Below, piece after piece: positions 5,862 through 56,932 of a DNA stretch of 64,000 nucleotides. The translations under genes were made by a program, and so were the position numbers. Position 1 is the stretch's first letter, and the number at the start of each line of letters is the position of its first letter. The notes under the pieces are model-generated. The model worked only from the letters and a program-made list of their open reading frames with translations. It was not told the DNA's origin and did no database searches. The stretch lies in the NCBI GenBank assembly GCA_034002745.1, contig JAVEZY010000006.1, forward strand, positions 12,667-76,666. Reading direction: 5' to 3'. This DNA is from Gammaproteobacteria bacterium. GTDB lineage: Bacteria > Pseudomonadota > Gammaproteobacteria > SZUA-140.

Positions 5862-7787
5862 ATGCCCGTATCCATGAGCAATCGTCTGCGACGTGCGTGC
5901 GCGAAAGCGCGGCCTCGGCCTCTCGGTTTCGGCTTCTGCCTGCCCCTGCTCGTCGTCTGCACGGAAGCGCCGGCTCGCGTGGCCGACCTCGTCGATCTCA
6001 GCATCGAAGAGCTGACGCAGGTACCCATCACCTCGGTATCGCGGCGTCCCGAGCCACTGGCGACTGCAGCCTCGGCAATCCAGATCATCACCGGCGAGGA
6101 AGTGAGGCGTTCGGGCGCAAGCGTGCTGCCCGAGGCACTGCGCCTCGCCCCCAACCTGCAGGTGAAGCAGATCACCTCCAACGACTGGTCCGTCACATCG
6201 CGCGGCTTCATCAGCCTGAGAACCGAAGCCGGCACACTCTCCAACAAACTGCTGGTCATGATCGATGGGCAAGCCATCTATACGCCCGTATTCGGCGGCG
6301 TATATTGGGAATCCCACAACATACTGCTCGATGACATCGACCGCATCGAGGTGGTGAGCGGTCCGGGCGGAACGCTGTGGGGAGCTAATGCCGTCAACGG
6401 CGTGATCAACATCATCCGCCGCTCCGCATCGCACACGCAGGGCTGGTACGGCAACCTGACCACGGGCGCACTGCTGGATGATTATTCACTGCGCTATGGC
6501 GGCAGAATCGGTGATCGCGGTCATTTCCGCGTCTATGGTCAGCAACTGAAACGTTACGCGATTGTCGCCGATGGCAGCGATGAATGGCAGACTCATCAGG
6601 GTGGCTTCCGCGTCGATCTCGATCTTTCGTCGCGCGACAGGCTGACCGTGCAGGGCGACATGCAGTCGGGCGAGGAAGGGCGGGAAACAGAGTTCGGCAT
6701 CAACAGCCGCAACCTGATGGCGATCTGGGAGCACCAGCAGAGCGAGGATTCCCAGTGGCGGCTGGCCACATACGTCAACGGGCGATGGCGGGCGCTTTCC
6801 AGCGTGGATCTCAAGGAAGACGTTTTCGACATCGACCTGCAGCATCGCTTCCGCACCAGCGCGGCAACCAACATTGTCTGGGGCGCCAGCTATCGCTCGT
6901 ATGAGGACCAAACGACGCCGCGCTCGGAAGAGGTACGGTTCATTCCGGACAGCCGCCGCCTGCTTACCAGCAATGCCTTCGTGCAGGGAGAGATCATCGC
7001 GATTCCCGATCGCCTCATGCTGACGCTCGGCACCAAATTCTCCGACAGCGAGTACAGCGGCTTCGAGATTCAGCCGAGTGTGCGCCTGGCCTGGCGGGCG
7101 ACCGAGAGCGGCACCCTGTGGTCCGCGATTTCGCGCGCCGTGCGCACGCCAACCCGTCTCGATCGGGATTTCCTCACCGAAGGGCTGGCTGGCAATCCCG
7201 GATTCGACAGCGAGAAGGTCATCGCCTACGAGGCCGGCTACCGCTGGCAACCCTCACCCAGGGCGTCCCTGTCGATCGCCGCCTACTACAACCGCTACCA
7301 GGATCTGCGCAGCTTCAGCGCCAATTCCGATCCACCGCCGGCGCTCATCCTTGGCAACGATTTCGAGGTGGACAGCTGGGGGGCGGAGCTGTTCGGCATG
7401 TTCGCGATCACCGAGCGCTGGCGCCTGAGGGCCTTCTACTCCCATCTGGATGCCCATTTCGAAGCGACCAGCCCCGCCGCGGTGAGCGATCCGGTTTCAG
7501 CCGAGAACCGGGATTCCAGCTATGTGCTGGGGCTGCATTCGATGATGGACCTGGGTCGAGGTTTTCAGCTGGACATCTTCATGCGCCGGATCGGCGCCAC
7601 GGGAGCCAACGATATCCCTCCGGACCCCGGCGTCCCCGCGCACAACAATCTCGACGCCCGCCTGGCCTGGCAGAACAGGAACTGGGAGGTGGCCCTGATA
7701 GGCCAGAACCTGAACGGCGCGCAGATCGAAATCAACCCTGAGGCGATTCCGCGCTATGTCTTCCTGCGGACGCGGTTCTGGTATTAG
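5862..7787 (+). CDS. TonB-dependent outer-membrane receptor of the type usually linked to YfiR/CHASE8 genes
   Basis: DLSIEELTQVPITSVSRR N-terminus. Plug motifs NKLLVMIDG and DIDRIEVVSGPGGTLWGANAVNGVINII. C-terminal aromatic beta-strand RTRFWY. Confidence 0.92.
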   Translation: MPVSMSNRLRRACAKARPRPLGFGFCLPLLVVCTEAPARVADLVDLSIEELTQVPITSVSRRPEPLATAASAIQIITGEEVRRSGASVLPEALRLAPNLQVKQITSNDWSVTSRGFISLRTEAGTLSNKLLVMIDGQAIYTPVFGGVYWESHNILLDDIDRIEVVSGPGGTLWGANAVNGVINIIRRSASHTQGWYGNLTTGALLDDYSLRYGGRIGDRGHFRVYGQQLKRYAIVADGSDEWQTHQGGFRVDLDLSSRDRLTVQGDMQSGEEGRETEFGINSRNLMAIWEHQQSEDSQWRLATYVNGRWRALSSVDLKEDVFDIDLQHRFRTSAATNIVWGASYRSYEDQTTPRSEEVRFIPDSRRLLTSNAFVQGEIIAIPDRLMLTLGTKFSDSEYSGFEIQPSVRLAWRATESGTLWSAISRAVRTPTRLDRDFLTEGLAGNPGFDSEKVIAYEAGYRWQPSPRASLSIAAYYNRYQDLRSFSANSDPPPALILGNDFEVDSWGAELFGMFAITERWRLRAFYSHLDAHFEATSPAAVSDPVSAENRDSSYVLGLHSMMDLGRGFQLDIFMRRIGATGANDIPPDPGVPAHNNLDARLAWQNRNWEVALIGQNLNGAQIEINPEAIPRYVFLRTRFWY

Positions 7788-7878: not shown

Positions 7879-9135
7879 TCAGCCCGGCAGCCACACCCGC
7901 GAGTGTGACATGCACTCGCCGACCGGAACGGTTTCCAGGATCTCGTCGCGATCGCCGTCGATGATGACGATTGCGCCAGCCTCGCCATTGGAGGAATAAA
8001 GCCGCAGGCCCCGATCCGTCCTGGCGACGGCCAGCGAGCCCGAGGCCGCGCCCAGCCGCAGCTCCCGCCGCAGCACCAGCCGTGGCAATGTGGTGAGGTC
8101 GACGATCAGCAGCGCATCGGACTTGAGATTGGCCTGCTGCTCCGGGCTGCCCGAACTGCCGGTGGTCATGAACAGCCGGGTGCCATCGGGATCGAAGTAG
8201 TACTTGCTGACATAGATGTCCGGCAGCGTCAGGCGATCGGCCACCGTCATGGTCTCCAGATCGAGCACGGTGAGATGGGCCATGACATGGGCGGGGTCCG
8301 ACTTGCGGTCAGCGCCGCGGCCGATGATGTAGCGCCCGCCCGGCACCATGAACAGGTTGCTGTGGCCCTTGAACGGTATGCGGTCCTCGATGCGGCAGCT
8401 GCGGGGATCGATTACCGCGATATTGCCGTAGCCGTTGTTGAGGTTGTACAGCTTGCCGGTCAGCGGGGAGAACACCAGCCCGTGCGGGAAAGCGTTGTTG
8501 GGGATTCCGCCGCGTCCACCCTCTTCGCGCTCGGGCTCGGACAGATCGATGGTGTCCAGCAAGCGCAGGAAATCGTCGCCCTCGGCGGGATCGTTGCCGA
8601 GCACCGATATCGAGCCATCCTTGAGGTTGCTGATCCAGGCGCGGCGCGGCACCTCGGGGGCGCTCGCCGTGGGCCGGGAAAAGCAGGCCTGATGATGACC
8701 ACGGCCGACGCAGATGGTCTTCAGGAAGCGGGCGCGCACACTGTCCACGTCCTCGATCACGGTCACCGAAGAGCCGCCATCGCCGCAGTTGAGGCGATCG
8801 TTGCCGGTCTCCTTGTCGCCGTCGTTCATGAACCAGCGACGCCTGGATTCCGGATCCTCGTAGATGTGAGCGGGAAAGGCATCGGCCGGGAAACCTTCCT
8901 GGGCACGGATTTCCTTGCTCTCCGGATCCAGCAGGATGACTTTCCGCTCCGGCGCATCCAGCCCGATGAAGACCGGCCGGAGTTCGGGCGGAAGGCCAGT
9001 TTCGGGCAGTGGGGGAATCGGCTCGATCCGCGTTTCGCCACCCTGGCGGCGAACCATCGCCAGACTGCCGGTCCGGCGATCGCCGGAATAATACGCCACA
9101 ACAAAATCGCCAGTTTCGTCAGAACGTTGTGTCAT
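7879..9135 (-). CDS. YncE/YVTN-like beta-propeller protein, no obvious signal peptide
   Basis: Repeated blade-like segments (GSSVTVIE, ICVGRGHH, DGSISVLG, FPHGLVFSP, GNIAVIDP, LTVLDLET, GAIVIIDG). Confidence 0.65.
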   Translation of the reverse strand: MTQRSDETGDFVVAYYSGDRRTGSLAMVRRQGGETRIEPIPPLPETGLPPELRPVFIGLDAPERKVILLDPESKEIRAQEGFPADAFPAHIYEDPESRRRWFMNDGDKETGNDRLNCGDGGSSVTVIEDVDSVRARFLKTICVGRGHHQACFSRPTASAPEVPRRAWISNLKDGSISVLGNDPAEGDDFLRLLDTIDLSEPEREEGGRGGIPNNAFPHGLVFSPLTGKLYNLNNGYGNIAVIDPRSCRIEDRIPFKGHSNLFMVPGGRYIIGRGADRKSDPAHVMAHLTVLDLETMTVADRLTLPDIYVSKYYFDPDGTRLFMTTGSSGSPEQQANLKSDALLIVDLTTLPRLVLRRELRLGAASGSLAVARTDRGLRLYSSNGEAGAIVIIDGDRDEILETVPVGECMSHSRVWLPG

Positions 9136-9323
9136 ATCTTTTATACCTTGCCCGAAGTTATTCTGAGAGATGTACCGGGGAAATCCTCACCGCGGAACAG
9201 GCCCTGGTCTCGATGGGCGCAGAGTCCGGAGATCGACCCTTCTGCTGCCTGATGCGGCCCAGGCGACAGTTCACTTTCCGCATGAGAAGACAGATGTCTG
9301 ACCCAGCGAAATCAGCAACTTGC

Positions 9324-9539
9324 TTACCTTTGTTCAGACTCTTCCCGCGCGCGGCGGCGGGCATGTTCACGGCGCCCCATGAATACGCCGATCATCACCG
9401 GCAGGACGACCACCGCCACGATGGCGATGCTCACCAGGAAGGTGCCGGAGGCATCATCGAAGCGCGCCATGAAGATGATGAACAGGATGATCGCCGCGGT
9501 CGCGGCGGAGTAGCCTGCAAAACGAATGAGTTCTTTCAT
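9324..9539 (-). CDS. Small two-TM hypothetical membrane protein
   Basis: 71 aa with two hydrophobic helices and a charged tail. Co-oriented between sthA and the propeller gene. Confidence 0.65.
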   Translation of the reverse strand: MKELIRFAGYSAATAAIILFIIFMARFDDASGTFLVSIAIVAVVVLPVMIGVFMGRREHARRRAREESEQR

Positions 9540-9576
9540 GTCTGTTACCGGCCGCGTAGCAAGCGGTCATTGTACA

Positions 9577-10941
9577 TCAGGAAACCCGGTTGAGCCCGTT
9601 GAGCGCCGCCACCCGGTAGGCCTCGGCCATGGTCGGATAGTTGAAGGTGGTGTCCACGAAATACCTGAGGGTATTGCCGGCGCCGGGCTGCGACATCACC
9701 ACCTGCCCGATATGGATGATCTCCGCGGCCTGGTCGCCGAAGCAATGGATGCCGAGGATCTCCAGTGTCTCGCGATGAAACAGGATCTTCAGCATGCCGG
9801 TCGTTTGACCCGAGATCTGCGCCCGCGCCAGATGGCGGAACAGGGAATGCCCCACCTCGTAGGGAACGCATTCCGCCGTCAGTTCGCGCTCGGTCCGTCC
9901 GATCGAACTGATCTCGGGCAGGGTATAGATTCCCGTGGGCACGCTTCTGAGCAAGCCGCCGGCATCGCCGCCCTGCAACAGGTGGGTGGCGGCGTAGCGT
10001 CCCTGATCGTAGGCGGCGCTCGCCAGATTGGGAGAACCTGTGATATCCCCGACGGCGTAGATGTGCGCGCGGGAGGAACGGTAACAGGAATCCACCCGCA
10101 CCAGCCCCCGCGCATCGGTTTCGACGCCGATGGCAGTCAGCCCCAGATCATCCGTATTCCCGGCCCGCCCCTGCGCCCACAGCAGGTAGTCGGCCCGGAT
10201 CAGTTTCTGCGACTTGAGATGCAGCGTGACACACTGATCGTCGGCCTCCGCGCGTTCGTACTCCTCATCGTGGCGGATCAGAATCCCCTGTTCGCGAAAA
10301 TGGTAGGACAGCGCATCCACTATCTCGTCGTCGAGGAAGGAAAGCAGCTGCGGGCGGGTATTGATCAGGTTCACCTTGATGCCGAGGTTGCGGAAGATCG
10401 ACGCATACTCGCAGCCGACCACGCCGGCGCCGTAGATGGTGATGGAACGCGGACTGTCGGTCAGCCCCAGCACGGTGTCGCTGTCGAGAATCCGCGGATG
10501 GAAAAAATCGATGTCCGGCGGATGAAACGGGCGCGAGCCGGGCGCGATCACGAAATTGTCGGCATGGTAGCGCCGCAGCTGGCCGCTGCCCGAGACCTCG
10601 ACGATGTGGTCGTCGACAAAGCGGGCATGCCCGGTGATGACATCGACGCGGTTGCGGTGATAGAAGCCGGTACGCATGTTCACCTGACGATCGATCACCG
10701 CGCGAGCGCTCCGCAGCAATTCGTCGAAGCGGGCGAGATCCTGACGCCCGGTCTGCACGAGTTGCTGTACCGCCTGGCGCAGCGCCTTGCTCGGAATAGT
10801 GGAGGTATGGGTGCAGTTGCCGCCGACCCGCGGCTTCTCCTCGATCACGGCGACCCGCCGGCCCCCCTTGGCCGCCTTCATCGCCGCGCCCTCACCGCCC
10901 GGCCCGCTGCCGATCACGATGACTTCGTATTTCTCGAGCAT
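9577..10941 (-). CDS. sthA: Soluble pyridine nucleotide transhydrogenase
   Basis: [14 protein letters not shown] motif, [31 protein letters not shown]-terminal [20 protein letters not shown]. Confidence 0.95.
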
Positions 10942-30131: not shown

Positions 30132-31694
30132 ATGACCGTAAAACCGCACACCGACGACCTCCGGCTCCTGATCGATACCCTGCCGGAGACGCTGCAGCAA
30201 AGCGTTCGACCTTACGCCGGCGACCAGCTTCTCGAAATCGTGCTCGACCTCGGCCGTCCTCCGCAGGCCCGTCTTCCGGGGCGGGCCGTGGACCTCGCTT
30301 CAACGGCGATCACCCGCAACGACCTCAGCGCCGTCATCACTCGCATCGGCGCCTTCGGCAGTGACAATCGGGCTGGCATCGAAGGCACGCTGCACCGGAT
30401 TTCCGCGATCCGCAACCGGCGCGGAGACATCGTCGGGCTCACCCTGCGCGTCGGCCGCGCCCTGTTCGGCACCATCGACCTCATTCGCGACCTGATCGAG
30501 GGCGGCCAGAGCGTGCTGCTGCTCGGCCGACCTGGCGTGGGCAAGACCACCAAGCTGCGCGAGATCGCGCGCGTGCTCGCCGACGAGTTCCAGAAGCGCG
30601 TGATCGTCATCGACACTTCCAACGAGATTGCAGGTGACGGCGATATCCCTCATGTCGCCATCGGCAGCGCAAGGCGCATGCAGGTCGCGTCGCCCGAAGC
30701 GCAGCATGCGGTCATGATCGAGGCGGTCGAGAACCACATGCCGGAAGTCATCATCATCGACGAGATCGGCACCGCGGCCGAAGCGCTCGCCGCCCGCACC
30801 ATCGCCGAACGCGGCGTTCAGCTGATCGGTACCGCGCACGGCAACACGCTGGACAACCTGGTGCGCAATCCGGTGCTGTCTGATCTGATCGGCGGCGTGC
30901 AGACGGTGACGCTCGGCGACGAGGAAGCCCGCATCCGCGGCACCCAGAAGACGATCTCCGAGCGCAAGGCGCCGCCCACCTTCACTGCGGTGGTCGAGAT
31001 CGTCGGTCACGAGGAATTGATCGTACATGCCGATACCGCGCAGGCCGTCGACGATCTGCTGCGCGGCTCACCGCCGCGTGGCTTGCGACGCACACCCGAG
31101 GGAGAACAGGCGATCGAAACACCGATGGCCATGCAGCGCCCCGCGCGCGCACCCGGCGTTCAGGGCCGGCCACTGTCGACCGGCGATCTGCGCGGAACGG
31201 TACGGATTTTCCCGTACGCCTTCGGCCGCGACATCCTGGAGCGAGTGATCAGGGACCTTCAGATCGATGCCCGCGTCGTCAATCGGCCCGAGCGCGCGCA
31301 ACTCATCATCACGCTGCGCTCGCGTACCGGGGACAGTCGATTGCAGCGCATTGCCCAGGCCAGCGGTGCGACCGTGCACGCAGTGAAGAAGAACTCCACT
31401 GCGCAGCTTCGCCATCTCCTTCGCGATCTGTTCAACCTGATGCCCGGCTTCGACGAGCGCGAAGCGGAAGCGGCCGTCAGAGAAACCGAGGAAGGCATAC
31501 AGCGCGCACTGTCCGAAGGCGTGGCGGTAACGCTCGCGCCACGTTCGGCATCCCTGCGCAGACTCCAGCACCGCGTGGCGAGCAGGCATCACCTGATTGC
31601 CGAAAGCATCGGCAGCGAACCCGGACGCCATCTGGTGATCTATCCGCATGCATTCGCCGCCGAGACGGGTGACAAGGTGAATGAGGAAAGATGA
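30132..31694 (+). CDS. Ycf45/SpoIIIAA-like AAA ATPase with C-terminal R3H domain
   Basis: [25 protein letters not shown], Walker [26 protein letters not shown]3H RRLQH. Confidence 0.88.
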
Positions 31695-31745
31695 AGGAAA
31701 ACGCGCTTTTTTCTTTCCACTTTCCTCCTTGCTCTCATCCTCCCT
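31681..31745. repeat. Heptamer-armed hairpin element overlapping the R3H-ATPase stop codon
   Basis: gaggaaa-gatgaag-gaaaacg followed by tttccac-tttcctc-cttgctc. Confidence 0.55.
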
Positions 31746-31760
31746 TAGGGTTTTCCTGTA

Positions 31761-31789
31761 TTGCAATGACCAATTGATGCGCCTATAGT
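31761..31789 (+). promoter_or_regulatory. Sigma70-type promoter of the second csp gene, implying a 5' UTR of about 150 nt
   Basis: TTGCAA-17 nt-TATAGT. Confidence 0.65.
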
Positions 31790-31945
31790 CGCCATGGCCC
31801 GTGTACGTCGCGGAGCTTTTTTTACCGGAGGAAGGTTCAATTGCAACATCTCCGCTCTTCTGTTCGAACTCACGCAACACTCCCATGGAACGTGACGAGA
31901 CTTGCGATTGAACGGTTTGATCGTTCGACGACAGAGGTGATTTAG

Positions 31946-32152
31946 ATGAAGACAGGCACGGTAAAGTGGTTCAATGAAGCGAAAGGTTACGGTTTCATTT
32001 CTCCCACGGACGGTGGCGCGGATGTATTCGTCCACTACTCCGCAATTCAGGGACGCGGATTCCGAACGCTGCAGGAAGGCCAGAACGTAGCGTTCGAAAT
32101 CGAAACCGGCAACAAGGGCCCGCAGGCTACGCAGGTCTCCGTTCAGCTCTGA
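31946..32152 (+). CDS. Cold-shock protein (CspA family)
   Basis: [26 protein letters not shown]; GAGG RBS. Confidence 0.96.
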
Positions 32153-32268
32153 CTCCGCCGCTCTCACCCGCGGCGGCCAGCGGTCGCCGCGGGTTTACCG
32201 CATTTCCAGCGCGCTTCCGGGTACGCGCATACACATACAACGAATACGAAGCGACCGGGAGGCGCGCC

Positions 32269-32538
32269 ATGAAGAAAATGTTCGTCAGTAATCTGCCCCA
32301 GGATATCTCCGAAGAGGATGTGGGAAAACTCTTTTCCGGATTCGGCAAGGTGCGCTCGGTGCAGCTCGCCTTCGATGTCTTTTCGCGCAAATGCCGCGGT
32401 TTCGGCTTCGTAGAAATGGAAGGACATGAAGCACGCGCCGCGATCGCCGGGCTGGATGGCAAGGAATACGGCGGCAAAGCGCTGCGCGTACGCTTCGACG
32501 ATGCCGGCAAGCAACGGCGCGGCGGAAGAAGAAGATAG
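32269..32538 (+). CDS. RRM (RNP-1) RNA-binding protein
   Basis: MFVSNLP (RNP2), CRGFGFVEM (RNP1), AIAGLDGKEYGGKALRV, RGG-like tail. Confidence 0.92.
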   Translation: MKKMFVSNLPQDISEEDVGKLFSGFGKVRSVQLAFDVFSRKCRGFGFVEMEGHEARAAIAGLDGKEYGGKALRVRFDDAGKQRRGGRRR

Positions 32539-32544
32539 CGCACA

Positions 32545-32660
32545 CGGAAGGACGAAGGCAGGAAGCGGAAAGTAGTCGCACGGGAATAGATTCCGCTTTC
32601 ATCCTTATCTCTTTCTTTTTTTCTCTTCCTCTTTCGACTGTTTCTTCCCCCGTCTCCCTC
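32545..32660. repeat. Heptamer-armed purine/pyrimidine element
   Basis: ggaagga-cgaaggc-aggaagc-ggaaagt followed by tttcatc…tttcttt…ttcctc-tttcgac. Confidence 0.5.
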
Positions 32661-32818
32661 CCGCGACAGACCGCATCGCTCATCGTTTCAGACGCTTGGC
32701 GCATTGCCCGCTGTTCCCCCGTCGCTTCGCACCGACAGTCTGCGCATGAAGGAACGCGCATCGACATTCTCAACCCGCTGATAAACATAGAGATCGGTGC
32801 CGTGGCACGATAGTTGTT
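32651..32818 (+). promoter_or_regulatory. Putative sigma54 promoter with two upstream GlrR-like activator sites
   Basis: TGGCACG-ATAG-TTGT at 32803-32817 (perfect -24, -12 is GT rather than GC). CGTC-N10-GACA at 32651-32668 and 32720-32737, each one mismatch from TGTC-N10-GACA. Confidence 0.5.
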
Positions 32819-32878
32819 ACAGAACACGCGGGCCAACCGGCCCCGATCGAATCTCATCCACACGAAGAGGAGATGCAC

Positions 32879-33145
32879 ATGAAAACCATCATTTCCGCAG
32901 CCGCTGCCATCGCTCTCGGTTTCGGCGCGGCCGGAGCTCTGCATGCCGAGGGCCTGCAGTCGGTTGCCGGCAGCCAGAAAAGCTTCGAAGAGGTAGACAG
33001 CGACGGTGACGGTAACGTAACGCGTGAGGAAGCGGATTCGGCCGGCATCAGCATCAACTGGGAAGAGGCCGATCCGGACGGCAATGGCTCGCTGACCCGC
33101 GAGGAGTACGAGAGCGCCACGCAGGACTCCGGCTCGAGCATGTAG
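32879..33145 (+). CDS. Small secreted two-EF-hand protein
   Basis: Signal peptide MKTIISAAAAIALGFGAAGALHA; loops DSDGDGNVTREE and DPDGNGSLTREE. Confidence 0.88.
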   Translation: MKTIISAAAAIALGFGAAGALHAEGLQSVAGSQKSFEEVDSDGDGNVTREEADSAGISINWEEADPDGNGSLTREEYESATQDSGSSM

Positions 33146-33229
33146 TTCCGGCAGGGGGCCGGCACCTGCAATGCCGGGCCTGTCCTCAGCCAACGAATCG
33201 CAATTTCACTCATGGAAGAGGAGAGTCTC

Positions 33230-33565
33230 ATGAAACCAGTAATAGCCCTGGCCGCCGCGGCGGCCCTGACCTTCGCTGCTGCACAAGTCATGGCCCAGAG
33301 CGATGTGCCGCCGGTACCCGGCGCGAGCAGCCCATCCTTCGACCAGGTTGATTCCGATGCCGACGGCCAGATCAGCCGCGAGGAAGCCGCTGCGGCTGGC
33401 ATCAGTCTGGACTGGGATAACGCTGACAGCGATGGCTCCGGTTCACTGAGCCAGGATGAGTATGACAGCGCCAGCGACCCCGGCAGCAGCATGCCGAGCG
33501 ACCCGGGCATGGGTAGCGACCCGGACATGGGTAGCGACCCCGGCGCGACCGATGGTGGCTTGTAA
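33230..33565 (+). CDS. Small secreted two-EF-hand protein (paralogue) with SDPG-repeat tail
   Basis: Signal peptide MKPVIALAAAAALTFAAAQVMA; loops DSDADGQISREE and DSDGSGSLSQDE. Confidence 0.88.
   Translation: MKPVIALAAAAALTFAAAQVMAQSDVPPVPGASSPSFDQVDSDADGQISREEAAAAGISLDWDNADSDGSGSLSQDEYDSASDPGSSMPSDPGMGSDPDMGSDPGATDGGL
33473..33550 (+). repeat. In-frame 18-bp tandem repeat (AGCGACCC…) encoding SDPG(M/S) units
   Basis: Units start at 33473, 33497, 33515 and 33533. Confidence 0.85.
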
Positions 33566-33690
33566 TCGCAGGCAGTAGCGGGCGGGCAACCGATCCGCGG
33601 GTGAATCGGCCGGTACGGGCACACGCCCGGCCGGCCTTCCGCCGGAATCGTCAGGCGGCACGCACATGACGAATATTCAGACAGGAGAAC

Positions 33691-33945
33691 ATGATGAACC
33701 GAACAATGGCCACCATGGGTGCCGCTGCCCTCGCGCTGATGCTGAGCGCCTGCAGCGGTGGAGACGGGCAGACTCCGCAGACCGACACACAGCCGCCGGG
33801 TTCGACGATGGACCGCGACACCATGTCAACGCCGCAGACGACCATGCCCGAGGAAAGTGCGCCGGATACCGGATCCACGTTTGGCGACGGCCAGACCGGA
33901 TCCGACATGAACACGCCGCCGCCAGCCAGCGGCTCACAGCCCTGA
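33691..33945 (+). CDS. Small low-complexity lipoprotein
   Basis: Lipobox LSAC; T/D/P/G/M-rich mature part; GGAG RBS. Confidence 0.75.
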   Translation: MMNRTMATMGAAALALMLSACSGGDGQTPQTDTQPPGSTMDRDTMSTPQTTMPEESAPDTGSTFGDGQTGSDMNTPPPASGSQP

Positions 33946-34080
33946 TCCCGGATCGCTTTACGGACGGCGCGGCGCGCAGGCGCCGCGCCTGCCGGCATGG
34001 TATGCCGTATGCTATTCTGCGCACATGCCATCTGGGTGCCGGAAATCGCAGACCGGCCGGGCGAAACGGCGTGGCTGCGT

Positions 34081-35550
34081 GTGAGCTTTCTAAGAACCCG
34101 ATCGATTCTCCAGCTCATCCTGATCAGCTTCATCCTCGTGATGGTGCCGCTGATCGTCGCCCTGCTCACCGCCGCAATCAATGTCGATCGCCTCAGCAAG
34201 CATGCGCAAAGGAGCGTATTCGAAGCGGTTGCAGCCACCCAGTCGAGCCGGATGCTCGTCGAGCACATCATCTCCATGGAGCGCAGCGCGCGCCAGTTCC
34301 AGGTATTGAATGATCGTGCCCTGCTCGAGGTGTATCGCGATCGCCATCACCAGTTCCAGCGGATAGCGCGCGGACTGCAGGATCTGCCTTCGTCGCAGCA
34401 GAACGAGATCCTGGCGATCGCCGAACACGAGCAAACCGTCTTTCGCCTGCTCGATGACCCGTCGTCCGACGCACAGACGATCGCCGCGGCGATCGAATCC
34501 TTTCCCACGATAAACTCCGCCGCGCGGGCGATTCTCGCCGAAAGCAGCAACCTCATCGGCGAGAGCGTCAACGAGCTGCAACAACTCGCGCGACGCGCGC
34601 AGAATCTGCTCTTCTGGCAGACGATGAGCCTGATACCGCTCGCCATCGTCCTGTTCATGCTCTTCACCGCGCTGATCATCAAACCGATGCGGCGCCTGCA
34701 TCAGGCGATCCGACGCCTCGGAGACGGCCAGTTCGAGCACGAAATCGCCATCAGCGGACCGAACGATCTGCGCGAACTCGGCGAACGCCTCGAATGGATG
34801 CGGCGGCGCATTCTCACGCTGGAAAACCAGAAGCTGATGTTCCTGCGTCACATGTCGCACGAACTGAAGACCCCGCTGACGACCATCCGCGAGGGCAGCG
34901 AACTGCTCAGTGAACAGCTGGTGGGAACCCTGAACACGGAACAGGCCGAAATCGCCGCGATGCTGCGCCAGAACAGCCTGCGCCTGCAGAAGCTGATCGA
35001 GGATCTGCTGAGCTTCAGCATCCTGGAGCGGGACGTACTGCGTGTCCGCCATGAGCCGCTGGCGCTGGATCAGCTCATCAGCGATGTGATCAGCGGCTAC
35101 CGGCTTCCGGCGCGTGCGAAGTCGGTAATCATAGAGACGAGAGTGGAACCGGTCGCGGTGGCGGGAGATCGCGACAAGCTGCGCAGCGTGGTGGACAATC
35201 TCGTCTCCAATGCCGTAAAGTACTCACCCGTCAACGGCCGCGTAACGGTATCGCTGATCGGCCGCCAGGGTCGCGCCGTCATCGATGTCGAGGACGAAGG
35301 CCCCGGCGTCGATGAGGATGAAAGAGGCAGAATCTTCAATGCCTTCTACCAGGGACGCGCACGCGCAAGCGGCCCCGTCAAGGGCACAGGACTGGGCCTT
35401 TCGATCACACGGGAATTCGTCCACCTGCACCATGGCACCATCGAGGTCATTGCGACCCCACACGGTGCACACTTCAGAGTCTCGCTGCCTTGCGATGCCG
35501 GACAGCCGGCTCCACAGGCGACCGACCAGCCACCTGAGGAATTCCCTTAG
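34081..35550 (+). CDS. GlrK/QseE-like sensor histidine kinase
   Basis: Two TM, HAMP GPNDLRELGERLEWMR, H-box RHMSHELKTPL, NLVSNAVKY, DEGPG, GTGLGL. Confidence 0.88.
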   Translation: MSFLRTRSILQLILISFILVMVPLIVALLTAAINVDRLSKHAQRSVFEAVAATQSSRMLVEHIISMERSARQFQVLNDRALLEVYRDRHHQFQRIARGLQDLPSSQQNEILAIAEHEQTVFRLLDDPSSDAQTIAAAIESFPTINSAARAILAESSNLIGESVNELQQLARRAQNLLFWQTMSLIPLAIVLFMLFTALIIKPMRRLHQAIRRLGDGQFEHEIAISGPNDLRELGERLEWMRRRILTLENQKLMFLRHMSHELKTPLTTIREGSELLSEQLVGTLNTEQAEIAAMLRQNSLRLQKLIEDLLSFSILERDVLRVRHEPLALDQLISDVISGYRLPARAKSVIIETRVEPVAVAGDRDKLRSVVDNLVSNAVKYSPVNGRVTVSLIGRQGRAVIDVEDEGPGVDEDERGRIFNAFYQGRARASGPVKGTGLGLSITREFVHLHHGTIEVIATPHGAHFRVSLPCDAGQPAPQATDQPPEEFP

Positions 35551-35554
35551 GTTC

Positions 35555-36151
35555 ATGACCGTAGGTGCCCTGCTGGCGTTGGCGGCATGCGCGACAGTTC
35601 CCGAATCGCCCGAACGGACGGACCTGCCGCCGGACGTCGAAAGCCCTCCTCCGCAGACGACCGGACAGCAGCCGCCGGAGACGAGCGACACGACCGACGT
35701 CGCCCCGGGCACTCCCTCGCCGCCGAGCGACGAAGGTAGCAGTGTGCCGGATGCCGCGGCCGAATCCGCCGTGATACAGTTTGCCGACGCCTGGCTCGAA
35801 CTGGCGGACGAGGCGCGTAGTCGGCAGTACCAGCAAGCGAGAGCCGACTATGAGTCGAGCGCCGACTTCGATGATCTCGTGCGGCTCGGGCTACTCACCA
35901 CGCTGCGCACCAACGACCGGGCAGCAGCATCCCGCATCAATGACGAGATCCGCAGCCGGCTGGAGACCGACGCAGAGCACGCGCTGGCCCCGCTTGCCCG
36001 AGTGGTGCTGCGGATCCTCGATGAACGCGCGCGCGCCATCGGCCGGCTGGCGGCGCAGAATGAGACGCTGCAGCGTCAGCTCGATGAACTGAAGGCGATC
36101 GAGGAGCAGCTTCGGGAACGCGGCCGCCCCGAGCCGATACAGGCACCTTAG
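35555..36151 (+). CDS. QseG/YfhG-like lipoprotein; start could be slightly upstream
   Basis: Lipobox LAAC, P/T-rich linker, C-terminal coiled coil NETLQRQLDELKAIEEQLRER. Lies between the kinase and the sigma54 regulator, as qseG does. Confidence 0.75.
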   Translation: MTVGALLALAACATVPESPERTDLPPDVESPPPQTTGQQPPETSDTTDVAPGTPSPPSDEGSSVPDAAAESAVIQFADAWLELADEARSRQYQQARADYESSADFDDLVRLGLLTTLRTNDRAAASRINDEIRSRLETDAEHALAPLARVVLRILDERARAIGRLAAQNETLQRQLDELKAIEEQLRERGRPEPIQAP

Positions 36152-36169
36152 ACAGGAAGGAATTGCGGC

Positions 36170-37537
36170 ATGACCATGCGACCAAGGATTCTTCTGGTAG
36201 ACGACGATCCCGATCTGCTGCGGCTGCTCTCCATCCGGCTGAACACTGCCGGCTGGGAAGTGATGACGGCCGATAGCGCGGAGAGCGCGCTGTCCCTGCT
36301 CGAAGAACGCCAGCCGCAGGTGGTGGTGACGGACCTGCGCATGGACGGCATGGATGGCATGGCGTTCTTCGATATCGTCCATGAGCGCTTCTCGACCCTG
36401 CCGGTGATCATCCTGACCGCGCACGGGACCATCCCCGAAGCGGTGGAAGCGACCAAGAGAGGCGTCTTCACCTTCCTCACCAAGCCGTTCGACAGCAAGG
36501 ATCTGCTCGATCACATCAATCGCGCGCTGCGCATCAGCGGCGTCGTCGCCAGCGAAAATGGCGGCGAACGCGGCGCCTGGAGCAGTGAAATAATCAGCCG
36601 CAGCGCCGTGATGGACGAACTGCTGAAGCAGGCGCGGCGTGTCGCCGACAGCAGCGCGGCGGTGCTGATCCACGGCGAAAGCGGTACCGGCAAGGAATTG
36701 CTGGCGCGCGCCATCCACAAGGCCGGCCCGCGCCGCGATCGGCCCTTCCTCGGACTCAACTGCAGCGCGATTCCCGAGTCGCTGCTCGAATCGGAGCTGT
36801 TCGGCCACAACAAGGGCGCATTCACCAGCGCCACCCGGGACCACAAGGGCCTGTTCCAGGCTGCCGAAGGCGGCACCCTCTTCCTCGACGAGATTGGCGA
36901 CATGCCCCTGCCGCTGCAGGCAAAGCTGCTGCGCGTGCTCGAGGAGAAGGAGGTGCGTCCGGTCGGCGCGACCGCGAATGTGCGGGTGGACGTGCGCATC
37001 ATCTCCGCCAGCCACCATGATCTCGACGAGCTGGTGAAGGCGCGCCAGTTCCGCGAGGATCTCTACTACCGCCTCAACGTGGTGCGCCTGGACATCCCGC
37101 CGCTACGCGAACGGCCCGAGGACGTGCAGCTGCTGGCCAACCACTTCCTGCGCGAGATCGCAGCAAATGGCGATACCCAGGCGCAATCCTTCGCACCCGA
37201 GGCGATGGAGCGCCTGGTCACAGCGCCCTGGCCCGGCAACGTGCGCCAGCTGCTGAACGTCGTGGAATATTCCGCCACGCTGTGCACCACCGCGGTGATC
37301 CCGCTCAGTCTGGTGCAGCGCGCGCTGCGTCTGAAGACCGGCGCCCTGCCCTCGCTGTCGGCCGCCCGCCGCAATTTCGAGCGCGAGTACCTGATGCGGT
37401 TGCTGAAGATGACGGAAGGCAACATTACGCAGGCCGCGCGACTGGCGCAGCGCAACCGCACCGAGCTGTACAAGCTGCTGCATCGCTACCATCTCAATCC
37501 GGAGACCTTCCGCGGCGCGAAGTCCGCGAAGGGTTGA
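36170..37537 (+). CDS. glrR: GlrR/QseF-like sigma54-dependent response regulator
   Basis: REC (VDDD, TDLRMDGMDG), GESGTGKE, ESELFGH, GAFTSA loop, FLDEIGD, FREDLYYRLNV, HTH ARLAQRNRTELYKLL. Confidence 0.85.
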   Translation: MTMRPRILLVDDDPDLLRLLSIRLNTAGWEVMTADSAESALSLLEERQPQVVVTDLRMDGMDGMAFFDIVHERFSTLPVIILTAHGTIPEAVEATKRGVFTFLTKPFDSKDLLDHINRALRISGVVASENGGERGAWSSEIISRSAVMDELLKQARRVADSSAAVLIHGESGTGKELLARAIHKAGPRRDRPFLGLNCSAIPESLLESELFGHNKGAFTSATRDHKGLFQAAEGGTLFLDEIGDMPLPLQAKLLRVLEEKEVRPVGATANVRVDVRIISASHHDLDELVKARQFREDLYYRLNVVRLDIPPLRERPEDVQLLANHFLREIAANGDTQAQSFAPEAMERLVTAPWPGNVRQLLNVVEYSATLCTTAVIPLSLVQRALRLKTGALPSLSAARRNFEREYLMRLLKMTEGNITQAARLAQRNRTELYKLLHRYHLNPETFRGAKSAKG

Positions 37538-56390: not shown

Positions 56391-56406
56391 TGGCATGGCG
56401 ATTGCA
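56391..56406 (+). promoter_or_regulatory. Sigma54 (-24/-12) promoter of the bactofilin operon
   Basis: TGGCATG-GCGA-TTGCA with exact GG-N10-GC spacing; AT-rich tract upstream (56345-56354). Confidence 0.75.
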
Positions 56407-56446
56407 ATCTGACGTGCGAAGTGGCGAGTTACTGACGGAGGAACAC

Positions 56447-56932
56447 ATGTTCAAGAGATCCGAAAAAGGCGATATGCGCGATACCAATACATCGACTGCC
56501 TCGAACATCGATCGTTCGATCCAGGAACCACGCGTTCACGCGACCATCGGTTCGACCATCCACATCAAGGGAGATGTAAGCGGCGACGAGAATCTCACCA
56601 TCGACGGCACGGTGGAGGGCACGATCGCTGTCAGGCAGCACAGCCTTCAGGTGGGAAAGAACGGCCGCCTGCAGGCTGACGTACACGCCAAGGTGATCCG
56701 CATCGAAGGCCATGTCGATGGCAACCTGCACGCCGAGGAGCAGGTGGTCATTCGCGCCAGCGGTGTGGTTCGAGGCAACATCGTGTCTCCGCGACTGACC
56801 ATGGAAGACGGATGCTCCTTCAAGGGCAGCGTCGACATGGAGGGCCGCGGCGAACGCAAGGCTGTGACGCCGGACAAACCGGCCACCGCGAGCGATGCCA
56901 GCCAGCCTGAACGGATCGCGGCCGCCAGCTGA
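56447..56932 (+). CDS. Bactofilin (polymer-forming cytoskeletal protein)
   Basis: ATIGSTIHIKGDVSGDENLTIDGTVEGTI, VIRIEGHVDGNL, VVRGNIVSPRLTMEDGCSFKGSV. Confidence 0.93.
   Translation: MFKRSEKGDMRDTNTSTASNIDRSIQEPRVHATIGSTIHIKGDVSGDENLTIDGTVEGTIAVRQHSLQVGKNGRLQADVHAKVIRIEGHVDGNLHAEEQVVIRASGVVRGNIVSPRLTMEDGCSFKGSVDMEGRGERKAVTPDKPATASDASQPERIAAAS

Follow-up and report, generated by a model that had tools for sequence, protein, structure and literature searches.

A GlrK/QseG/GlrR-type regulatory system with a likely local target in a secreted EF-hand operon

The sensor kinase GlrK/QseE, the lipoprotein QseG and the response regulator GlrR/QseF have been studied almost only in Enterobacteriaceae; they are known to act on glmY, rpoE and, in some species, glmZ. 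Here we describe a system of this type in a 64 kb stretch of contig JAVEZY010000006.1 from a gammaproteobacterium (the window; the rest of the genome lies outside our view). Directly upstream of the kinase gene, and on the same strand, are genes for two secreted EF-hand proteins (EF1 and EF2) and a small acidic lipoprotein, and EF1 is itself preceded by a sigma54-type promoter with two GlrR-type boxes. This architecture is conserved in close relatives, and secreted EF-hand genes stand behind the same type of promoter, beside the same three-gene cluster, in distant lineages. On these grounds we consider it likely that the local target of the system is the secreted EF-hand operon, to which the small lipoprotein probably belongs, and not the small RNA (sRNA) gene glmY. 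In the established system, GlrR recognises TGTC-N10-GACA and acts as an activator of sigma54 promoters (PMC3045617), its kinase QseE is activated by QseG on the periplasmic side (PMC6075780), and the system has been described as conserved in Enterobacteriaceae (PMC6075780, 2018).

Promoter and genes of the locus

All features of the window described below lie on the forward (+) strand. The gene for an RRM protein ends at 32538 and is separated from EF1 by an intergenic region of ~340 nt, which opens with an inverted repeat (32555..32632; fold −28.3 kcal/mol) followed by the T-rich tail CUUUCUUUUUUUCUC; this is a likely terminator, and is likely to insulate the EF-hand promoter. The sigma54-type promoter TGGCACGATAGTTGTT (32803..32818) has GG at −25/−24, and its segment TGGCACGATAGTTGT at 32803-32817 is the sole exact match to TGGCACG-N4-TTGY in the 64 kb. 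The predicted transcription start is at ~32829, and a ribosome-binding site and the EF1 open reading frame (ORF) follow. Upstream of the promoter are a distal box, CGTCTCCCTCCCGCGACA (32651..32668), and a proximal box, CGTCGCTTCGCACCGACA (32720..32737), which start respectively 152 and 83 nt before the TGG of the −24 element, are centred about −170 and −100, and each agree with TGTC-N10-GACA in 7 of 8 bases. Both are CGTC-N10-GACA copies that sit at the core of a direct repeat (30 nt, spacing 69 nt; distal copy 32645-32674). Between the proximal box and the promoter, a four-way alignment with relatives reveals the conserved block CAAC-N4-CTG[A/T]T (32768..32784), which has 2-3 mismatches to WATCARNNNNTTR and may, by inference only, be a site for DNA bending of the IHF type; the glmY promoter of E. 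coli needs IHF (PMC3045617).

We defined a composite motif as a sigma54 score of at least 10/12 with two boxes of at least 7/8 bases located 50-260 nt upstream. It occurs once in the window, at this position, against an expectation of 0.03 per window, and only 5 of 200 simulations had any. No second GlrR-type promoter was found in the window, and no sigma70-like promoter near EF1. A search of the window with Rfam returned two tRNAs only, and no glmY, GlmZ or other sRNA, under conditions in which E. coli glmY was found at 146 bits; in 10 related loci searched in the same way, no glmY-like RNA was found outside E. coli.

EF1 is an 88-amino-acid (aa) protein with two EF-hands (32879..33145, longest ORF from 32873; Pfam EF-hand_1/5/6/7), and EF2 is its 49% identical paralogue, of 111 aa as encoded (33230..33565, longest ORF from 33212; Pfam EF-hand_5/1), with a Gly/Asp/Pro-rich tail after its two EF-hands. 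Comparison with relatives suggests that the true starts are at 32879 (MKTII...) and 33230 (MKPVI...), and by inspection each protein begins with a Sec-type signal peptide. Two canonical 12-residue loops of the DxDxDG...E type, in paired helix-loop-helix units, are present in each ORF (DSDGDGNVTREE and DPDGNGSLTREE in 32873-33145, DSDADGQISREE and DSDGSGSLSQDE in 33212-33565), and PF00036 and PF13202 exceed their gathering cut-offs. The AlphaFold model of EF1 consists of two helix-strand-helix units (domain pLDDT, the predicted local distance difference score, 78-91), and its neighbours in the PDB are calmodulin lobes, with probability up to 0.99. A homologue search with this short protein returned 13 sequences, all very close. 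As canonical EF loops are established Ca2+ ligands, EF1 and EF2 would be periplasmic Ca2+ binders. By description only, they can be likened to EfhP (PA4107) of Pseudomonas aeruginosa, a small Ca2+-binding protein with a canonical EF-hand pair that acts as a mediator of Ca2+ responses (PMC9132961, PMC4053335), the window proteins being Sec-secreted and encoded in tandem; we found no reported link in the literature between EfhP and the GlrK/GlrR system or a sigma54 promoter. The small acidic lipoprotein (33691..33945; 84 aa, low complexity, lipobox LSAC) matches no Pfam family.

The sensor kinase (33997..35550) has two transmembrane segments, a periplasmic helical domain, and HAMP, HisKA and HATPase_c domains (Pfam). 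It is 34% identical to E. coli GlrK over residues 9-469, the periplasmic domain included (E 3e-72), and many of its homologues carry the JGI name GlrK; we therefore regard it as a GlrK orthologue, while noting that no GlrK model is among its 25 best NCBIfam matches. Its Ser84 aligns with Ser58 of E. coli QseE, the residue that contacts QseG. The true start of the kinase is probably some codons downstream of 33997. A perfect 10-bp G+C hairpin with no U-tract (33966..33989) ends 8 nt before the first ATG of the ORF; its position just before this ATG suggests a start codon further downstream, and the hairpin itself may serve in attenuation or processing, or be a repeat element.

The gene that follows encodes a lipoprotein in the QseG position (35495..36151, alternative start 35555; lipobox LAAC), and the last gene of the cluster a GlrR/QseF-like sigma54-dependent response regulator (36170..37537) with REC, Sigma54_activat AAA+ and HTH_8 domains (Pfam). 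Over 449 residues, helix-turn-helix included, the regulator shares 54% identity with E. coli GlrR, and its best NCBIfam model is GlrR, with 584.6 bits (433 for NtrC), although the equivalog cut-off of 763 is not reached; we regard it as a GlrR orthologue. Its DNA-binding helix is nearly unchanged (NITQAARLAQRNRTELYKLL against NVTHAARMAGRNRTEFYKLL in E. coli GlrR), and the recognition helix region RNRTE[F/L]YKLL is kept from E. coli to the window and to the regulators of EF-linked loci.

An earlier note on this DNA had described the qseE-qseG-qseF-type order of kinase, lipoprotein and sigma54 activator, the two paralogous secreted two-EF-hand proteins and the small lipoprotein upstream of the kinase, and, before EF1, TGGCACG-N4-TTGT and two CGTC-N10-GACA sites; each of these elements is present, the last three starting at 32803, 32651 and 32720. 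Its caveats also hold, namely the GT at the −12 element, a GAFTSA loop in the regulator, and the overlap of the first site with a repeat, both boxes lying in the direct repeat given above.

Conservation in relatives and recurrence in distant lineages

Close relatives were found by exact-protein look-ups of kinase homologues (L-numbers denote the compared loci, from genomes and metagenome contigs). In L082, L086 and L087-L089 the kinases are 75-76% identical to that of the window and the gene order is the same: RRM protein, EF1, EF2, small lipoprotein, kinase, lipoprotein, regulator. EF2 is kept in L082, L086 and L087, and the small lipoprotein has weak homologues at the same position in these three loci (E about 1e-8). 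The earlier note had made its reading depend on conservation of the motifs in relatives with the same gene order, and in these five relatives the −24/−12 element and both boxes are indeed kept. When the upstream regions of the window, L082, L086 and L087 are aligned, the flanks have diverged and only four blocks survive: the two boxes, CAAC-N4-CTG, and TGGCACG-N4-TTG. The last is invariant in the three relatives, with TTGT or TTGA at −12. The distal box is CGTC-N10-[G/T]ACA in all four sequences, while the proximal box, CGTC-N10-GACA in the window, matches TGTC-N10-GACA in full in L086 and L087 and reads TGTC-N10-GACG in L082. A sister group, L090/L091 (kinase 63% identical), has at the same place a single EF-hand gene and an acidic lipoprotein, the latter in L090 at the position equivalent to that of the window; two perfect boxes and the canonical promoter TGGCATGGATATCGCA precede the EF-hand gene, and the −12 element has the canonical GC in L090 and also in L092, likewise a sister lineage.

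To the upstream side, the synteny extends over genes for an AAA/PTPase/R3H protein, a CSD cold-shock protein and the RRM protein (window 30132-32538; also L082, L083, L086, L087 and L090, where the CSD gene is absent). A cspA thermoregulator RNA is matched by Rfam in L083, and at the gathering threshold there is none in the window.

Genome contigs searched with a profile of the kinase yielded at least 36 loci with a full-length GlrK-like protein. They belong to Beta- and Gammaproteobacteria and, in part, to a few other phyla, and among the GlrK-like matches listed the kinases are 29-48% identical to that of the window, none exceeding 48%. About half of the 80 loci returned by this search carry unrelated kinases, and these were reused as a control set. 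Where the GlrK-like loci reach far enough, most have a gene for a lipoprotein placed between those of the kinase and the GlrR-like regulator, as do nearly all loci related to that of the window. As a positive control, the scan for promoter and boxes recovers E. coli glmY with its three published boxes (PMC3045617).

The combination of promoter, boxes and a secreted EF-hand gene beside glrK-lipoprotein-glrR was found, with Pfam confirmation, in distant lineages of Beta- and Gammaproteobacteria, at least 11 in all; ten of them are described here. The EF-hand gene is upstream of the kinase gene, as in the window, in L031, L033 and L036, the last from Neptuniibacter sp. CAU 1671; downstream of glrR in L002, L022 and L024, and also in L005 and L014, where it is fused to a BON domain; divergent from the kinase gene in L021; and 5 kb away in L020. 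In L003, glrR is followed by two boxes and an EF-hand gene, and no convincing −24/−12 element was found. Box phasing is well kept: in 9 lineages, the window included, the distance from the start of the box to the TGG is 80-84 nt for the proximal box and 147-152 nt for the distal one. A second phasing, with starts at 103-114 and 168-179 nt, is found in L002 (proximal box only), L033, L036 and E. coli glmY (107, 170). Thus the GlrR operator code TGTC-N10-GACA, which the earlier note had read in this promoter, recurs with its geometry before EF-hand genes at GlrK/GlrR clusters. The statement of that note that EF-hand genes occupy the place of glmY is correct for this clade and some others; elsewhere the EF-hand gene is downstream of glrR or divergent, and L083 has no EF-hand gene at the locus.

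In a search with a hidden Markov model (HMM) of the EF domain, 18 ORFs were found in 14 of 40 GlrK loci (456 kb), versus none in the 44 unrelated kinase loci (447 kb). We also scanned metagenomes with the motif only (two perfect boxes at the observed spacing, followed by TGGCA), without use of protein information, and read 80 loci, on contigs that were mostly short. Most of them have a complete sigma54 promoter, and GlrK- or GlrR-like proteins are also encoded on at least 35 of the 80 contigs. The gene downstream encodes a secreted EF-hand protein in 13 of the 80 loci (three of them EF-BON fusions) and a member of a bactofilin family in 7; 5 are of the enterobacterial glmY type, and BON proteins, glycine-zipper proteins and a small conserved peptide account for a few each. 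Overall, the same cluster and enhancer code are widespread in Beta- and Gammaproteobacteria, in contrast to the enterobacterial range given in the literature, and the commonest protein-coding class behind this type of promoter, in the loci examined, is the secreted EF-hand pair, sometimes fused to BON. In a rough neighbour-joining tree of the regulators, rooted at the midpoint, EF-linked loci are on most branches, and those nearest to E. coli GlrR, from Neptunomonas and Neptuniibacter, are also EF-linked, with the EF-hand gene upstream of the kinase gene.

Proposed mechanism and alternatives

In the mechanism that we propose, the kinase, aided by the lipoprotein, would phosphorylate the regulator, which would bind at the two boxes of the TGTC-N10-GACA type, whose centres are ~100 and ~170 nt before the start site, and, with DNA bending, activate the sigma54 promoter at 32803-32818. 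Transcription of the EF-hand genes would thus depend on RpoN and GlrR. The products would be exported and bind Ca2+ in the periplasm, and the system would adjust envelope or divalent-cation homeostasis. The BON, glycine-zipper and EF-BON targets, together with rpoE and glmY of E. coli, all point to envelope homeostasis. The locus belongs to the same wider family as the enterobacterial system and would work like it, with a different output. The likeness to E. coli lies in the order of kinase, lipoprotein and sigma54 activator (regulator 54%, kinase 34% identical), in TGTC-N10-GACA enhancers more than 100 nt upstream of a −24/−12 promoter, and in a target that immediately precedes the kinase gene on its strand. 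The differences are that the target is an operon for secreted EF-hand proteins and not the sRNA glmY, that there are two boxes (three at glmY), that the −12 element has GT and the activator loop is GAFTSA, and that the lipoprotein matches QseG only through a C-terminal profile.

Several observations weigh against this assignment. The −12 element (32814-32817) has GT, not GC, at −13/−12, although the GG and the spacing are exact, and both boxes of the window have C instead of T at position 1. Taken alone, CGTC-N10-GACA is not significant, with 5 occurrences in the window versus 3.5 expected. The sigma54-contact loop of the regulator (36815-36832 region) is GAFTSA, not GAFTGA. Intergenic GC-rich hairpins without U-tracts make the extent of the putative operon uncertain. 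The confidence of the EF1 model over the whole chain is only 70, the alignment behind it is shallow, and the E-values of the PDB matches are weak, which is to be expected with ~55 residues. The controls for the EF-domain enrichment, the unrelated kinase loci, were not taxon-matched to the GlrK loci. In the sister loci L083-L085 (kinase 67% identical, same flanking synteny) there is no EF-hand cassette, the stop codon of the RRM gene being 30 nt before the kinase gene; therefore the cassette is ancestral to the clade but dispensable at this site, and the linkage is not obligatory. The middle lipoprotein has no match to PF13942, which E. coli QseG itself matches with 269.7 bits. What sequence and comparison do show are the identities of the genes, the layout of promoter and boxes, its conservation, and its repeated link with EF-hand genes.

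With respect to the lipoprotein, the QseG identity given by the earlier note stands in part. Position, lipobox and a C-terminal match are in its favour: a profile of 30 middle lipoproteins aligns to E. coli QseG with 93.8% probability (E 1.7e-7), only over ~50 columns of C-terminal coiled coil. The Pfam family of QseG, as said, is not matched, and BLASTP detects no similarity between the two proteins. The label is thus partly supported by sequence.

A refinement of the proposed mechanism, which we regard as possible but tentative, is that the EF-hand proteins are co-sensors or feedback components, EF1 and EF2, with or without bound Ca2+, binding the periplasmic domain of the kinase or the lipoprotein and tuning the kinase, in the way that ZraP acts on ZraS and CpxP on CpxA. 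The EF-hand gene stays beside the three-gene cluster through at least three rearrangements (upstream, divergent, downstream of glrR), and such adjacency is typical of accessory proteins, as for example in zraP-zraSR (PMC4987338); the resemblance to this envelope-stress module and to that of cpxP-cpxAR makes a role of this kind plausible. ZraP is a small periplasmic metal-binding protein, expressed from an adjacent sigma54 promoter under an NtrC-family two-component system, that represses its own system (PMC4987338), but it is a zinc-binding chaperone and repressor with no kinship in sequence or fold to the EF-hand pairs of the window. E. coli QseE already relies on a periplasmic partner, QseG (PMC6075780), and the serine of the kinase that contacts QseG is kept here. 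On the other hand, the equivalent position is empty or taken by other small envelope proteins in several lineages, and the EF-hand-BON fusions look more like envelope effectors.

In the light of the distribution of the EF-linked loci, a wider proposal can be put forward, again tentatively: secreted EF-hand pairs may be the ancestral and most widespread target of GlrK/QseG/GlrR in Beta- and Gammaproteobacteria, acting as Ca2+-dependent partners in the periplasm that inform the kinase of the Ca2+ status of the envelope, and the enterobacterial glmY output may be a late replacement. If this were true, the system would be a four-component periplasmic sensor of calcium or of the envelope. An unrecognised and probably older job of the GlrK/GlrR switch seems to be indicated, and the findings offer a testable lead on what the system senses or controls, whether periplasmic Ca2+ or envelope integrity. 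Bacterial EF-hand proteins with a defined regulator are rare, and this would be one such case; it would also exemplify how a conserved enhancer/promoter cassette can swap a protein-coding output for an sRNA output. In the full-text literature we found no link of GlrR/QseF to EF-hand proteins (co-mentions of GlrR and 'calcium-binding' are unrelated, judging by their titles), and nothing on a GlrR regulon in Betaproteobacteria.

Another enhancer-binding protein might serve the sigma54 promoter, the adjacency to GlrR-like genes being coincidental. The imperfect boxes of the window leave some room for this explanation, as does the fact that only 64 kb of the genome is visible and further activators may be encoded elsewhere. 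We find it unlikely, however, since the boxes are of the type defined experimentally as the GlrR site (PMC3045617), are perfect in relatives, and travel with GlrR-like genes in genomes and metagenomes.

It is more improbable still that EF1 and EF2 bind lanthanides, in the manner of lanmodulin (LanM), instead of Ca2+. LanM is also a small periplasmic EF-hand protein and provides the best NCBIfam match of EF1, and one EF loop (DPDGNG) has at position 2 the Pro typical of LanM. The match is weak, however (NF053806, 35.3 bits versus a cut-off of 135); LanM has four EF-hands with a Pro signature, whereas each window protein has two; the Pro is present in only 1 of the 4 loops, and is replaced by Gln in two close homologues (P0131 and P0133); and the EF-hand targets of other lineages are without the LanM-type Pro. 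We have rejected the identification of EF1 as lanmodulin.

Finally, the view that the motifs are due to chance and that the EF-hand genes are ordinary neighbours transcribed with sigma70 is strongly disfavoured: the count of the single box and the non-canonical −12 element are compatible with it, but the composite motif is rare, its parts are kept between diverging flanks, the architecture is found again in distant lineages, and the sigma70-like promoter that would be needed near EF1 was not seen.

Other targets and minor observations

The loop of the activator and the −12 element vary in parallel in part of the data set. A GAFT[S/N]A loop is found only in the clade of the window (window, L082, L083, L086, L087), and the EF-hand promoters, which were identified in four of its members, have TTGT or TTGA as the −12 element. 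In L090 and L092, which have GAFTGA, and in all 30 other readable regulators the loop is G[AS]F[TS]GA, and GC is the −12 dinucleotide in most of the promoters identified. The loop and the −12 element could have changed together; as this amounts to a single evolutionary event, and two other lineages combine GAFTGA with TTGT, we consider the pairing only a curiosity.

Elsewhere in the window (56391-56932), a bactofilin gene (PF04519) stands behind a canonical sigma54 promoter, TGGCATGGCGATTGCA, with no box of 7/8 or better within 260 nt. The encoded protein is 28% identical to the bactofilin family that stands behind two perfect GlrR boxes in the 7 metagenome loci mentioned above (L114, L125, L126, L135, L142, L146, L155).

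Among the other loci, several further classes of genes are found behind promoters of the GlrR type. In Betaproteobacteria such a promoter stands before fusions of an EF-hand pair to a BON domain of the OsmY type (L005 6075-6617, L014 9656-10153, L100, L105, L170), and stand-alone BON proteins are the targets in L095 and L139, with a BON-like protein in L129. A protein of 150-190 aa with a CxxCG motif is encoded in L010 (12463-13014), L017 (10007-10456), L027 (9561-10019) and L111, and in L010 and L111 it also has a glycine-zipper (Rick_17kDa_Anti) segment. A peptide of 50-60 aa ending in LEQLAxRVSAARSVY is found in L008 (9900-10073), L110, L147 and L156.

Box pairs 65-67 nt apart, with no EF-hand ORF, lie directly upstream of the kinase gene in four loci: L028 (5737-5820), L029 (5604-5690), L032 (5782-5865) and L030 (5843-5930). 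The boxes are perfect in the first three, which are betaproteobacterial (Propionivibrio, Accumulibacter and Dechloromonas); L030, from a gammaproteobacterial metagenome-assembled genome, has one perfect box and one of 7/8. The sole −24/−12-like element in L028 and L029 has a spacing of 9 nt, not 10.

In L092 (Ectothiorhodospiraceae bacterium 2226, CP054689), just upstream of glrK, there is a sigma54 promoter with a 7/8 box 82 nt before it; ~270 nt that contain no ORF, and then a strong terminator, come after this promoter. This region (6968-7262) has no Rfam match, and is a candidate for a GlrR-dependent sRNA in the glmY position. A second promoter of this kind in the locus, at 7451, precedes the gene of a secreted acidic protein of 71 aa without EF loops. 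In L093 (Thermithiobacillus plumbiphilus, 8001-10472), a GlrK-like kinase and a middle protein are accompanied by a receiver-only regulator of 121 aa, which replaces the sigma54 activator.

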